From Octopus sinensis (taxonomy: Eukaryota): DNA of 64,000 bases. The DNA lies in NCBI RefSeq assembly GCF_006345805.1, contig NC_042998.1, positions 8,804,001-8,868,000 on the forward strand. Direction: 5' to 3'. The translations under genes were made by a program, and so were the position numbers. The stretch's first letter is position 1; each line of letters starts with the position of its first letter. The notes under the pieces are model-generated. The model was not told the origin of the DNA, did no database searches, and saw only the letters and a program-made list of their open reading frames with translations. Below, piece by piece: positions 551 to 12,000 of the stretch.

Positions 551-683
551 ATGTTTTAACATGAATGTTTTAACATGCAATTTTAACCAACATTCAGAAA
601 GTTAATGAAAATTTTTAAAAACTGAAGAAAATCTACATTTTAAAATGGCTGGCGAGTATAAAAAATTATAGTTAAGGCTTGAT

Positions 684-736
684 TCAGCTCGACTCAACTT
701 TTGTTTGGTCAAGCACTATAAGGTTTTCACCAGTAG
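684..736 (-). CDS. Possible terminal coding exon (ATGENLIVLDQTKVESS*)
   Basis: In phase 1 after B2 and begins ACT GGT GAA like B1/B2, but the acceptor (gataaaag) is weak. Confidence 0.25.
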
Positions 737-879
737 CTTTTATCGTTTAATTCATTCATTATTTTCTTAACCCATGAAGAAATCATATTGCCAAATGTGT
801 TACGAGGAGGTCAATAAGGAATGCATGATTAAATGTCAAGATATCAAATGAATCTTTTTCAAAAGTATTGATTTTATTT

Positions 880-6000: not shown

Positions 6001-9000
6001 CATCGCTCGCATTTTTCGTCATAAAAATTATATAAAAATACATAAAAAATATATAAAAATATATAAAAATATATAAAAATATATAAATTCTTCTTCTTGG
6101 GACATAACATAGAAAGCATGTTCTATCTGTTTTCTTTAGAGGACCAAAAACGTAACAGAAATTTAGTCACATGTGGGCATGATCCGAAAAGCTCTGTCCT
6201 TGTATTTAGACATGTAGTAGGGTCTAAGCTGCTTTTCCAGATAAGCCATCTCTCCATGTCGCATAGACCGCACCCTCCGCTGCCGTTGGTATAGGGCTTA
6301 CATCTGGCCAAAATCTTCCATTGTATGTTATAATCGACACCTTTATCTCTTAAAGACCAAATATGATTAGATAATTGTGTCGCTTTTCTTTTGTTCCAGT
6401 GCCTAAAGCTCAAAGTGTGGTTATTGAACCTGGCCTTGAAATTACCCTCTGTAAGGCCCACGTATTTCTTCGTCGAAACGGTGTCTTTAGTGGTTATAGA
6501 GTTTGGCCAGATGTAAGCCCTATACCAACGGCAGCGGAAAGTGCGGTCTATGCGACATGGAGAGATGGCTTATCTGGAAAAGCAGCTTAGACCCTACTAC
6601 ATGTCTAAGACAGTAATTTCCCTTTATTTAACGGTATTTTTTCATAGCGTTTACTTATATATATATATATATATAAACGAGAAAAGAAGCAACAAGAATG
6701 GATTAGTTTTTAGTACAATTGTTTCATACAGACAGGCTTTATTAAAAGTTGCAAATATTGCAGCAGATATGTATTTCCCTTTAATGATAGCCTTTGACCC
6801 CTCAATCCCTTACCCTGTTCTCTCTTTAGATTCTCATATCTGCTTTAGCTACTTCAGGTTGGCAATTAATAGCTGTTTACTGGTCAAAAATAATATTCTC
6901 CTTATAGTTCTTAGATTCCTGCAAATTCTAAGCCAGCCTGACCGTCTCCATATTTAAGAGACTTTTTTTCTGTGTAGGGCGTTACCTGCGACCCCTTCCC
7001 TCTCAGTTGTCACAGTATACTCTATGTGGGCGTTTTTTTCTTTTTTCTTTTTTCTTTTTTCTTTTTTTTCTTCTTTTTCTTTTTTCTTCTTCTCTTTTTC
7101 TTTTTTCTTTTTCTTTCTTTTCTTTTTTCTTTTCTTCTCTTTCCTTTTCTTTTCTTTGCTCCACAAAATTCCTTCAGCCTTTAGAAGTCATACCATAGCA
7201 GTTTTGTGAAGAGAATAGTAATGTGGCAAATACCTTATCATATAGCATGAAATTATACCCACCTCATTGTGGATTAACCATGGATAAATTCATCGTCTGT
7301 GAGTATGAATACCTCCTCATATCTCTGGAAATTTACACCTACACTATGGATGGATTAAACTTCTCTGTGAAGCTAATAAGCTTTTTAAAACCTGTGATAA
7401 GACTGTGCATCATCATTAAAGAACTTTGGAAGTCTGTTTACAACCTGAATCTGCTTTTAATGAAATTATCTCCAATACTTCATGAGTGTAGCCTCACCCA
7501 CTAAGATGTTTGGAGAACTCATATGTGTTTTAGCTGATGAGTACGGGACACTTTTATCTGCTGCAATATTTGCAACTTTTAATAAAGCCTGTCTTTGTAT
7601 GAAACAATTGTACTAAAAACTAATCCATTCTTGTTGCTTCTTTCTCGTTTATAATCACCCCACATTACTGTATTGGTTAACACCATATAGTCTTCTGGTG
7701 CATCTAAGTTAAGTACCGCATTCAAGTGAATTCATTAGAATTGACTTGAATCTTAATTGCTTTTATATATATATATATATATATATATATACATACACGC
7801 ACACACACACACAGACACACACAGACACACACACACACATATATATATGTACACACGATGGAGTGGACAGACGAACGAAGGGCACTCAACCAATATATTG
7901 GGAGTTACATGAATGGATCTTGATATTCAAGCGTGATCCTAGTCGTCAACCATTTTGAATTTGAATGACAGAAGTTGATTGTTATTAACGATTAAGAGTA
8001 TGAAGACAGGGTAATCCCCCGGTCCATCAGGAATTACTGCAGAGATGCTCAAAATATCTGGCAGTGTCGGCTATAGCCTAGTCACACGTAAAGTTAACCA
8101 GGTGATACACGAAGGAGTCATACCCAATGACTGGTGTAGCAGTATAATAGTCAACTGCTACAAAGGTAAAGGTGATGCTTTAGATACAAATAATTACAGT
8201 GGTATCAAGCTGTTGGATCAGGTAATGAAGGTTACGGAGACGGCCATAGCCCAACTAATTAGGGAGAGAGTCAGATTGGATGAGATGCAGTTTGGTTTTG
8301 TGTCAGGGAAAAACACCACTGATGCTATATTCCTGGTAAGACAGCTGCAGGAAAAATACCTAGCCAAAGATAAGCCCCTGTACCGGGCTTTCGTTGACAT
8401 GGAGGAAGCCTTTGACAGGGTCCCCCGATCCCTTATCTGGTGATCATTGAGAAAACTAGGGATAGCGAATGGTTAGTGAGAGGCGTGCAAGCCATGTACA
8501 GGGACGCTGTCACTAAGGTGAGGGTTGGCAACGAGTACACTGAAGAATTCAGGGTAGAGGTAGGGTTCAACCAGGGTTCAGTCCTCAGCCACCTCCTATT
8601 TATCAGAGTCCTCCAGCAATAACGGAGGAATTCAAGACAGGATGCCCCTGGGACCTCCTTTATGCTGATGACCCTGTTCTAATTGCTGAGTCACTATCAG
8701 AACTAGAGGAAAAGTTTCAGGTGTGGAAACAAGGATTAGAATCGAAGGGCCTTAGAGTCAACCTAGCTAAAACCAAAGTCCTAATAAGTAGGAAGGCAGG
8801 CAAACCACAAATCTCTTCAGGTAGATGGCCCTGCTCTATCTGTAGTAGAGGCGTAGGTAGAAACTCTATAAGATGTACCCAGTGTAAGCTATGGACACAT
8901 AAGTGGTGCAGTAATATCAAAGGAAGGCTAACGGGGAAGATAGTTTTTGTATGTGGCAGATGCTCGGGAGCAATAAGCACTGAAAATGTGCAGAGAACAA

Positions 9001-12000
9001 CTGCCACATTCCAGGGAGGTAAACTAGAAGTAGTTGATAGCTTCCGTTACCTAGGTGATCAGGTCAGTAGCGGGAGAGGGTGTGCTGAAAGTGTAGCTGC
9101 TAGAATAAAAATAGCTTGGGCAAAGTTCAGTGAGCTCTTACCCCTGCTGGTGACAAAGGGCCTCTCGCTCAGAGTAAAAGGTAGACTGTATGACGCTTGT
9201 GTACGAACAGCCATGCTACATGGCAGTGAAACATGGGCTGTGACTGCTGAGGACATGCATAAGCTCGCAAGGAATGAAGCCAGTATGATCCGATGGATGT
9301 GTAATGTCAGTGTGCATACTCGACAGAGTGTGAGTACCATGAGAGAAATGTTGGACCTAAGAAGCATCAGATGTGGTGTGCAAGAAAGACGACTGCGCTG
9401 GTATGGTCATGTGGCGAGAATGGATGAGGATAGCTGTGTGAAAAAGTGCCACACCCTAGCGGTTGAGTGAACCTGTGGAAGAAGTAGACCCTGGAAGACC
9501 TGGGATGAAGTGGTGAAGCACGACCTTCGAAATTTAGACCTCACTAAAGAAATGACTAGTGACCGAGACTTTTGGAAATATGCTGTTCGTGAGAAGACCC
9601 GGCAAGCCAAATGAGACCATAATCTCGTGGCCTATGCCAGGGGCGTAACCAGCCCACTTATTCGTAACTTTTCCTTCTTTGGACACCAAAACTCTGCTTG
9701 CGAATACCTGTTGAGGCAAGTGAAATTAAAATCAAAATCAAATTCGATGACTGACGTCCGTGCTAGCGGGGTGCAAAGAGCACCATACGAGTGTGATCAT
9801 TGACAGAGCGGCTAACCGGCTTCCGTGCAAGTGGCTCTTAAAAGGCACCATTCGAATGTGATCGTTACCAGCGTCGCCTTACTGGTACTCGAGTCCCGTG
9901 CTAGTAGAGTATTAAGAGCACCATCCGAGCGTGATCGTTGCCAGAGTGGCTATCTGGCCTCTGTGCCGGTGGCACGTAAAAGACACCATTTGAGTATAAT
10001 CGTTACCAGCATCGCCTTACTGGCACCTGTGCCGGTGGCATGTGTAAAAGATTCGAGCGAGGTCGTTGCCAGTACCGCCTGACTGGTCCCGGGCCGGTGG
10101 CACATAAAAGCACCCACTACACGCTCAGAGTGGTTGGTGTTAGGAAGGGCATCCAGCTGTAGAAACTCTGCCACATCAAGATTGAAGCCTGGTGCAGCCA
10201 TCTGGTTCGCCAGCCCTTAGTCAAATCTTCCAACCCATGCTAGCATGGAAAGCGGGCGTTAAACGATAATGATTATGGTGATGATGATGTACGTTGGGCT
10301 GAGATTGGTCGAGGAAGGTCACACGATATCGTGGTTTGATATTGGTGTATGGGTAAAAGTTAGTTGGAAAATGTCACATGAAGAACAGGAAATTGACCAC
10401 GTGGAGTGCAGGAAATAGACGATGTGATGATTAGAAATCGGTTTGGATATTGGGGTGTAAGTAGAAGGGGGTGGGCGTGAATATGCAAGTTCTATATGTG
10501 GATGTGTAGACAGTCTCATATAACTTTGCGTGTATCTGTATAGCGATGCGAATGAGCGTATCTATACATGGGAGCTCACGCACAAGTTTGCACACGCACA
10601 CAAACACACACGCTTGGACGAACATGCAGGCGCACGTAAACACACATACACACATATAGGTAAGCATGCACACAAGCATGCGAATGCATATGTACATATG
10701 AATGAATACTCATGTGTGTATATGGGCGTATGCGCGTGTATGTGTGTTTGTGTGTGTGTGTATGTGTGTGTGTGTGTGTATGTGTGTGTGTGAGTGTCTG
10801 TGTGTATTTGTGTGTAAGTCTGTGGGCGCCCATGTACATGAGCGCACATAAAGTTTGCTAAAAGTGACACCTACCTTTATTTTGCATCATATTGTATATA
10901 CTCAGTTTTGGTGTTTCCCCAGTCTCTGAGAAAAAAATAAGACAGTGAAAGGCATTTAAGTAAATTATAAATTAATAACATTTAATGAAAATATACAATA
11001 AATGTTCTAATACAATGAATATTTTATCATAAACATTCAGAAATTTAATGAAAATTTATAAAATTGGAAAAATTCGATTTTTCTAATGCGCGTCGAGGTT
11101 TATTAGTCAAGGGTCACCATAACCTTCTTTTTAAAGAACTTAGGTTTAGGGAAGTTTTTCGATGCTTCATTTTGGTGCAACCACTGCGAAGTTCGTTCTT
11201 TTATTATTAGTGTACACAATCCACTTTTCATCGCAGGATACAATACGGTCGAGAAATGCATCGGTCTAGTTACGGAGAAGAAGCGATGAACAAATTTTCT
11301 GATTTCAATTGAAATCGTAGGGTACCCATTTGTCGAAATGTTTTGAATTTCCGATCGCTGGCAGTTTTCTAGCAAACTTGAAATTTATTTACCAGTTCTC
11401 GAGTGATTTTATGTGGATCTTCCTCAATGACGGGTTTTAATTAAACGTCATCGATGATACATGGGCGTTTACTACACTCATGTTCTACAGGTCTCAGGGC
11501 TCCACTGCGAAATCGTTGAAACCATTTTCGAGATGACCACTCACTGATCATTTCTTCACCAAACATTTCGTTGATATCGCGAGCAGTTTCAGCTGATATA
11601 CATCCATTTTTGAATTTGAATAGTAAAATTGTTTGAATATCGCGCTTTGACATTTCCATTTCAGATGATTGCAACAGCGGTGAAAAAATATCGATATTAA
11701 TCTATCGATGCATCTGGGAAAGCCAAGTCTGTATCATCAGACAATTGCCAAAACTTGTTTTAATAAATCAAAAAATTACAAAATAATGCTTACTTTTGAC
11801 TCAATCTCATATATATATATATATATATATATATATATATATATATATATATATATATATATATATATATATATGTATGTCGGGTATATATATATACCAT
11901 ACACATATATATATATATATATATATATATATATATAGTAGAGATATATATATATATATTATATATATATATATATAATTTATAGAAGGAGCTTCTACAG

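Follow-up and report, generated by a model that had tools for sequence, protein, structure and literature searches.

A minus-strand gene for an immunoglobulin-type receptor lies across the window

We analysed 64,000 nucleotides of the Octopus sinensis genome (assembly GCF_006345805.1, contig NC_042998.1, positions 8,804,001 to 8,868,000), hereafter the window. Self-comparison of the window combined with a scan for spliceable exons uncovered a long gene on the minus strand, and this work concerns the cytoplasmic tail of its product, encoded in part by two short exons termed B1 and B2. The window is AT-rich and dense in microsatellites and in remnants of retro- and DNA transposons. Among eight candidates, three proteins matched exon 42303-42550, namely P0001 (O. 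sinensis LOC115210431), P0003 (O. sinensis LOC115232395) and P0002, a prediction from O. vulgaris; P0005 is the RefSeq isoform X1 of LOC115232395. Mapping proteins back to the DNA placed ten exons on the minus strand (Table 1), all of which have GT donors and, from exon 2 onwards, AG acceptors. From the RefSeq start through the end of B2, 284 of 284 residues are identical to P0005, and B1 and B2 are therefore coding exons of a public gene model. The gene very probably encodes a single-pass surface receptor of the immunoglobulin (Ig) superfamily, composed of a signal peptide, one V-type and two C-type domains, a transmembrane helix and an unstructured tail.

Table 1. Coordinates of the exons, intron blocks and mobile elements in the window
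Feature	Position	Strand	Remarks
Exon 1, coding part	59373-59415	-	Phase 1 donor; holds the start codon and a hydrophobic stretch resembling a signal peptide; 12/14 to P0001, 13/14 to P0002
Exon 2	45182-45226	-	45 nt, phase 1-1; 14/14 residues as in P0001
Exon 3, V-type Ig domain	42303-42550	-	248 nt; fold from AlphaFold and structural matches
Exon 4, C-type Ig domain 1, first half	32677-32774	-	
Exon 5, C-type Ig domain 1, second half	25014-25173	-	
Exon 6, C-type repeat 2, first half	19927-20024	-	Paralogue of exon 4, 64/98 nt
Exon 7, C-type repeat 2, second half	16241-16376	-	Shorter by 24 nt than its paralogue, exon 5; fold without confident prediction
Exon 8, transmembrane helix and basic stop-transfer residues	13889-14011	-	Phase 1-1
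Tail exon B1	10875-10925	-	51 nt, phase 1-1, one Tyr (SIYNMM)
Tail exon B2	2967-3014	-	48 nt, phase 1-1, two Tyr (HGYVPV)
Unit 1 upstream intron, acceptor side and conserved block	10926-11115	-	
Unit 2 upstream block	4341-4660	-	About 1.3 kb from the B2 acceptor side (3015-3074)
Unit 3 upstream block	553-917	-	No exon within the window
Mariner transposase remnant	11106-11701	-	Pfam HTH_48 E 1.8e-14, Transposase_1 E 2.4e-4
Element in the intron between exon 8 and B1	11991-13134	.	Bounded by 177-bp inverted repeats, 97%
Inverted near-copy of 12524-12766 (element interior)	1-273	.	222 matches, 6 mismatches, 59 gap columns
Element related to 11991-13134	51246-53174		171-bp inverted repeats at 99%; both have microsatellite-rich interiors
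Intronic mobile-element remnant	8015-9600	+	8015-8440 is RVT_1 by Pfam
Intronic mobile-element remnant	28063-29673	-	
Intronic mobile-element remnant	36608-38541	-	
Intronic mobile-element remnant	39135-40739		

B1 and B2 are copies of one symmetric exon and its intron flanks

The original prediction held that the tail had grown by tandem duplication of symmetric mini-exons, and our analysis bears out both the duplication and the placement of the exons in the cytoplasmic part of a membrane protein. B1 and B2 are real exons, bounded by AG and GT and of phase 1-1 in the frame of the upstream exons, and their donors are homologous (gtaggt at B1, gtagga at B2). Aligned together with their flanks, they agree at 100 of 145 positions with a score of 123.5, the maximum in 200 shuffles being 95.5. 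The two copies share the same phase, homology of both exon and intron flanks, and a single orientation, as is the mark of tandem duplication of a symmetric exon. The donor-side pattern is present twice, a number that was reached in 3 of 100 shuffles. In-frame skipping, likewise proposed beforehand, is possible, as the frame stays open when B1, B2 or the two together are removed; owing to phase 1-1, gain, loss, reordering or skipping of unit copies causes no frame break.

The exons themselves are no closer to each other than their surroundings are: B1 and B2 share 26 of 48 nucleotides, the flanks outside the core splice sites 53 of 70, and the corrected distances amount to 0.74 (0.42-1.36) for the exons, 0.30 (0.16-0.49) for the flanks and 0.37-0.42 for the upstream blocks described below. 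No surplus identity was found at codon positions 1 and 2 (7/16, 10/16 and 9/16 by position). The peptides thus lack broad conservation, with frame, splice sites and tyrosine as the features that were kept; despite the low nucleotide identity, Tyr 11 is retained in both. We set aside positive selection on these exons, given that the Fisher p of 0.006 is biased by AT-rich, alignment-chosen flanks and that the corrected intervals overlap. Comparisons of the distal downstream introns of B1 and B2, and of the donor side of the transmembrane exon with the B donors, did not reveal homology (eight of ten within the shuffle range).

A block further upstream in the intron forms part of the same unit, which comprises the exon, about 65 bases on the acceptor side and a roughly 350-base block. 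Each of the three shared strings from which a recurring block had been proposed occurs exactly twice at the places named, and 0 of 100 shuffles gave two matches for any of them. The block is present in three copies, as block 553-917 scores 208.5 against 4341-4660 and 555-875 scores 123 against 10992-11350, both with a shuffle maximum of 102. The third pairing (about 4340-4450 with about 11020-11115) did not emerge from a wide comparison (90, maximum 104) and was recovered in a narrow window chosen post hoc (61.5, maximum 42.5). A tile scan over the whole 64-kb window found no other copies. In unit 1, likeness stops where the mariner remnant starts, and the remainder of the block upstream of B1 was not found past this remnant; in unit 3, a dispersed repeat (302-543) occupies the expected position of the acceptor. 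It is less likely that the block derives from a dispersed transposon, the only three copies in 64 kb all lying in the tail region and in one orientation.

At approximately 69-72% likeness to the other two blocks, block 553-917 is ruled out as intron of an identical copy of B1; the exon order would rather assign it to module C, one of the additional tail modules described below. The inverted near-copy at 1-273 of the element from the intron between exon 8 and B1 scores 369.5, as compared with 228 for the best of 11 control microsatellite blocks. It is compatible with a second copy of that intron starting there; a recent duplication of the stretch with B1 and B2 would explain it, as would an element that inserted independently or sequence falsely doubled in the assembly.

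Tail modules recur in public gene models

Modules C, D and E and a second B1-B2 pair are known from public protein models and peptides, not as DNA. The named isoforms of LOC115232395 read B1-B2-B1-B2-C-D-D-E, B1-B1-B2-C-D-D-E and B1-B2-B1-B2-C-D-E, RefSeq X2 and X3 being modelled without one B2 or one D. Further paralogous exons downstream, as had been anticipated, are therefore present in gene models beyond the left edge of the window. The third tyrosine exon that had been placed there fares less evenly: a second B1 and a second B2 exist in the RefSeq models, but block 553-917, which had been taken to announce it, is likely not theirs. The extra tyrosine exons left of the window probably stem from a separate recent duplication.

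Module orders vary in eight models of five loci. O. vulgaris P0002 has the order B1-B2-C'-B2-C-D-D-D-E, O. sinensis LOC115211119 has B1-B2-C'-D3-E and B1-B2-C'-D6-E, the poor model P0008 from O. vulgaris has B2-C-D, and in O. sinensis LOC118761365 (P0024, a partial model on a 29.8-kb contig) C-B2-B1 follow directly after the membrane helix. The copy number of D ranges from one to six among related genes, and every module is 16-18 residues long; from these lengths, and because isoforms differ by whole modules, C and D would be separate symmetric exons. In a register without gaps, position 11 holds the tyrosine of B1 and the first of those in a 17-residue B2, but serine in C and asparagine in D; module C is mostly without tyrosine. 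Shuffle tests in this 17-residue register (ten pairs, three measures) gave p 0.0007-0.003 for homology between B2 and C, with a BLOSUM shuffle p of 0.0007 for O. vulgaris B2 and C, and p 0.004 for B1 and B2 by minimal base changes; O. vulgaris B2 and the DNA of window B1 agree at 30 of 48 positions (p 0.001).

Cassette skipping of tail exons is suggested by the gene models. A check of four of 24 runs (X1, X2, X5 and X14; guessed to be RNA, contigs only) against 2700-11780 was swamped by repeats: among the matches listed (15 of 153 joints, 24 of 2011 loose ends and 32 of 40,877 pieces) none lay at a B1 or B2 boundary, which is neutral with regard to expression and skipping.

The individual exons resemble different paralogues. 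Compared with P0001, exon 2 is identical, as are exon 3 in the downstream frame (64/64) and exon 4 (32/32), and exons 5-7 reach 69-79%; B2 is identical to LOC115211119 (15/15) and B1 to P0024 (16/16). On sequence grounds, this mosaic suggests exchange between paralogues (gene conversion) or chimeric models. P0001 sits on another chromosome-scale contig (164.8 Mb, as against 207.9 Mb).

The ectodomain has a predicted Ig fold and belongs to a family found in octopods

To model the fold we used AlphaFold with the paralogue P0001 and a 34-sequence alignment. The model shows two confident beta-sandwiches over residues 21-200 (block pLDDT, the predicted local distance difference test score, 85-98), in agreement with an Ig fold of domains 1 and 2. 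The leading structural matches are tied, with butyrophilin (4hh8) at Z 13.5 (root-mean-square deviation 4.2, 179 residues aligned), nectin-3 at Z 13.3 (3.0, 176) and CD200RLa at Z 12.8 (3.3, 167), these top three being at 10-12% identity. Foldseek returned antibody light chains (E 7.6e-10), and an Atlas search with the ectodomain gave V-set clusters at 0.88-0.90, which we regard as a lead; in an Atlas search with the tail, all scores were below 0.9 with TM below 0.3. The V domain is without the B-F disulfide, the sole V-domain cysteines of P0001 being residues 62 and 66, which form a CxxxC motif outside strands 38-43 and 94-98. None of the 34 aligned members matched Pfam V-set at E 0.05, and I-set was weak in seven of 34 (best E 5.4e-5), with P0001 at 14.1 bits lying under the cut-off of 23.7. 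Pfam assigned no family to three single exons and nothing over the cut-off to three whole proteins. The third domain is a sequence paralogue of the second, with pLDDT mostly below 50. Both C-type domains are products of a tandem duplication, each split in two exons (phases 1-0 and 0-1) whose intron flanks are homologous. For P0005, the model places the membrane helix at residues 218-252, and pLDDT falls below 50 in the tail from residue 249. The signal peptide was judged by eye from the hydrophobic exon 1 and from an N-terminal helix in the P0001 model.

A phmmer search with P0002 against 1.84 billion representatives yielded 33 hits at E 0.001, including P0039 (E 4.7e-4), which seems unrelated. 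The 13 named hits are all octopod (five O. sinensis, one O. vulgaris, five O. bimaculoides and two Argonauta hians) and, as these are 13 of 33, 'octopod family' is a statement about this sample. The V-type CxxxC motif occurs in 25 of the 33 hits, in some with up to four repeats. A membrane helix past residue 40 is predicted for 21 hits, 18 of which have a tail of at most 45 residues, many of the models being partial. Related O. sinensis models are broken or partial: P0001 is without a transmembrane helix, and P0024 is partial.

Several relatives differ from the window gene in architecture. In P0002, P0007, P0009, P0011, P0028 and P0030, between two and six membrane helices are predicted behind the Ig domains, as against the single one of the window gene, and the additional transmembrane exons in these close relatives may have been duplicated too. 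P0010, P0012, P0014, P0015 and P0016 have two to four tandem V-type repeats. By crude helix calls, P0014, P0021, P0029 and P0035, most of them short-tailed, carry a charged residue inside the predicted membrane helix, a feature reminiscent of activating paired receptors. Isoform numbers of LOC115225115 reach X12, and P0018, in which C2H2 zinc-finger-like repeats are joined to the V-type domain of the family, is probably a gene-prediction chimera.

As for the mobile elements in the introns, Pfam confirmed two, the mariner remnant and the reverse transcriptase at the start of 8015-9600. The remaining remnants we take, from their long open frames, to resemble Penelope-type and LINE (long interspersed nuclear element) reverse transcriptases, alongside a presumed Tc1-like element with 215-bp inverted ends.

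Tyrosine motifs and the possible role of the tail

YxxM is the docking consensus of PI3K p85, and YxxPhi (bound by AP adaptors) and the acidic dileucine are patterns of sorting signals. The YxxM of B1 lies within the predicted unstructured tail (tail pLDDT 24-36) and is absent from the B1 of the paralogue. Both conserved tyrosines fit YxxPhi, which has a chance of 0.19 per tyrosine, and B2 also fits GYxxPhi; the B2 of P0002, P0008 and P0024 begins with a match to [DE]xxxL[LI], which window B2 and P0009 lack. For ITIMs (immunoreceptor tyrosine-based inhibitory motifs) we used the consensus [I/L/V/S]xYxx[I/V/L], as in the accessible part of 10.1101/2022.03.04.482883. An ITIM-like context had been ascribed to B1, and this part of the original prediction falls: the motif is a YxxM with Ser at -2 that lies outside the consensus. 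ITIM matches number zero in P0005, P0003, P0002 and P0009 and one each in P0008 and P0024, where the 17-residue B2 provides the fit (SEYVPV and a one-residue variant). Window B2 is one codon shorter than that of the SEYVPV relatives and, given the 17 residues of B2 in the ITIM-type relatives, seems to have lost a codon before its tyrosine.

Taken together, these observations lead us to a model, to which we give an even chance, of an Ig receptor whose tail docks SH2 proteins at a number of sites set by duplication and skipping. The tail would have grown by repeated tandem duplication of one intron-exon unit with about 51 coding bases, and position 11 of the older unit was presumably a tyrosine set within S-x-Y-x-x-hydrophobic. 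As the copies diverged, B1 would have become a YxxM type and B2 an ITIM type, seen in two relatives and degenerate in the window, with C and D as spacers lacking Tyr 11. Contact of the V domain with a cell-surface or foreign ligand would lead to phosphorylation of the tail tyrosines, which may recruit SHP or SHIP through their SH2 domains at the ITIM type and PI3K p85 at YxxM, and copy number together with cassette skipping would govern motif dose. That C and D share this origin, that skipping is real, and that phosphorylation, SH2 binding and an immune role follow is what we infer.

A number of findings weigh against this model. None of the three tyrosines in window B1 and B2 fits the ITIM consensus, and none fits YxN or the immunoreceptor tyrosine-based switch motif (ITSM); the chance of one ITIM among four independent tyrosines is about 0.13, and the paralogue's B1 carries His where Tyr stood. 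The most amplified module is D, which is without tyrosine. The homology of B2 and D is weak (p 0.011-0.016 among 30 tests), and in the shuffle tests B1 with C, B1 with D, and C with D were not significant. Tail modules occur in three of the 33 hits, all from O. sinensis or O. vulgaris; P0027, P0030 and P0037 had been flagged as module carriers by a loose pattern and were dropped under a strict one. Mis-mapping or false duplication is possible, since the isoforms are computed and the B1-B2 copies identical in protein sequence. Finally, exon 3 lacks one base near 42497-42500 when compared with P0001, which makes the spliced frame end at codon 55. The missing base falls in a run of two, and the starts of the RefSeq models lie downstream of it; a loss within such a run is compatible with long-read sequencing error, and the deletion is either an assembly error or a null allele.

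Alternatively, the tail could serve sorting, with the tyrosines acting as YxxPhi signals, in some copies beside an acidic dileucine, and the number of modules tuning the endocytosis of an adhesion or uptake receptor instead of SH2 signalling. We regard this as unlikely: the YxxPhi and GYxxPhi fits and the dileucine matches in three relatives speak for it, yet the dileucine is missing from window B2 and P0009, YxxPhi has the per-tyrosine chance given above, and sorting and SH2 signalling are not mutually exclusive. A further improbable reading is neutral turnover, in which symmetric exons pile up in a tolerant, disordered tail, the tyrosines are without selected function and the copy is perhaps decaying. 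This would account for an exon distance not below that of the introns (0.30-0.42) and for the lack of surplus identity at codon positions 1 and 2, for the missing tyrosine in the paralogue's B1 and at position 11 of C and D, for the frameshift in exon 3 and the 24-nt loss in exon 7, and for the short tails of most helix-bearing hits. However, frame, splice sites and Tyr 11 were maintained in B1 and B2 over an intron divergence of 0.3-0.4, modules are identical at 10-16 of 15-16 residues across loci and species, and quicker change of the exons would also be compatible with diversifying selection. It is very unlikely that, beside a real old duplication of B1, B2 and C, false assembly duplication and read mis-mapping produced the second B1-B2 pair as well as the forms with skipped exons, as the protein-identical copies, the near-identity of window 1-273 to intron sequence upstream of B1 and the broken or partial models P0001 and P0024 might suggest, because two B1 are present in all three named isoforms of LOC115232395, the B2-B1 junction also occurs at another locus (P0024) and O. 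vulgaris P0002, from a separate assembly, has two B2.

We consider, as a speculative idea that is rather improbable, that octopods independently evolved a fast-changing family of V-type Ig receptors for self/non-self recognition or checkpoint control, in which one subfamily in the O. vulgaris/O. sinensis branch gained a cassette tail. If this were true, inhibitory, activating and spacer exons would be added, reordered, swapped between paralogues and skipped, short-tailed siblings would act as decoys or activating partners, and cephalopods would have, in this family, an equivalent of the paired receptors of vertebrates, with its diversity in the signalling part.

Comparison with known systems

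Tyrosine-motif tails, splice control of motifs and divergent invertebrate Ig families are already known, and the gene models are public as 'uncharacterized'. Our literature searches, which included six LOC identifiers and left most subscription journals and supplements outside their reach, found no paper on the octopod Ig family, and the main text of a 2025 review of invertebrate Ig-superfamily function is without octopus or cephalopods (PMC11999971). The octopod Ig family, one subfamily of which has a tail built from cassettes, thus appears to be undescribed. The weight of the case is limited by the window's own motifs, which are the degenerate ones, and the SH2 signalling step is putative. 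Even so, the family supplies definite candidates for receptors of cell recognition in cephalopods, and between closely related species the growth of a signalling tail by duplication of one symmetric exon can be followed in a small system.

In fold, the closest systems are B7, butyrophilin, nectin and CD200R, with which the octopus protein shares a two-domain V+C arrangement (Z 12.7-13.5 over 167-186 residues). This is likeness of fold alone at 9-13% identity; the octopus V domain has CxxxC instead of the B-F disulfide, and its C domains are each split over two exons, unlike those of this comparison set.

With regard to the tail, PECAM-1 is likewise a single-pass Ig-superfamily protein with a multi-exon cytoplasmic domain, several exons of which are alternatively spliced, loss of exon 14 abolishing SHP-2 binding (PMC5664058). 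In contrast to the octopus gene, to which we found no sequence relation, it is a vertebrate protein with six Ig domains, two canonical ITIMs and demonstrated binding, and the accessible text of PMC5664058 does not present the exons of its tail as copies of a single unit. Botryllus FcoR, according to the portion of PMC11507803 at hand, belongs to an invertebrate multigene receptor family in which ITIM and hemITAM (half of an immunoreceptor tyrosine-based activating motif, ITAM) are switched by allele and splicing. It differs in being akin to the Sushi-domain fester proteins, in being part of a mapped allorecognition system, and in switching by substitution, intron retention and splice variants. 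In the accessible part of 10.1101/2022.03.04.482883, Hydractinia Alr is a divergent, lineage-specific family of V-set and I-set Ig proteins shaped by duplication, exon shuffling and splicing, with ITIM/ITAM tails, and many Alr lack the core disulfide. Here the differences are an Fn3-like membrane-proximal domain, location in one genomic complex and an allorecognition role that has been shown; no ITAM was noted in octopus tails, and 0 of the 13 named family hits are cnidarian. Among molluscs, the sections of PMC11841013 available to us describe the oyster Ig receptor CgNCAM1 as ITIM-bearing and as interacting with CgSHIP2, and CgIgIT2 is reportedly a further oyster Ig receptor with ITIMs; with three Ig domains plus Fn3, or five Ig domains, they carry canonical ITIMs, and those sections describe no modular exon tail. 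A member of none of these systems, the octopus gene would at best resemble PECAM-1, Botryllus FcoR, Hydractinia Alr and oyster CgNCAM1 in its way of working.

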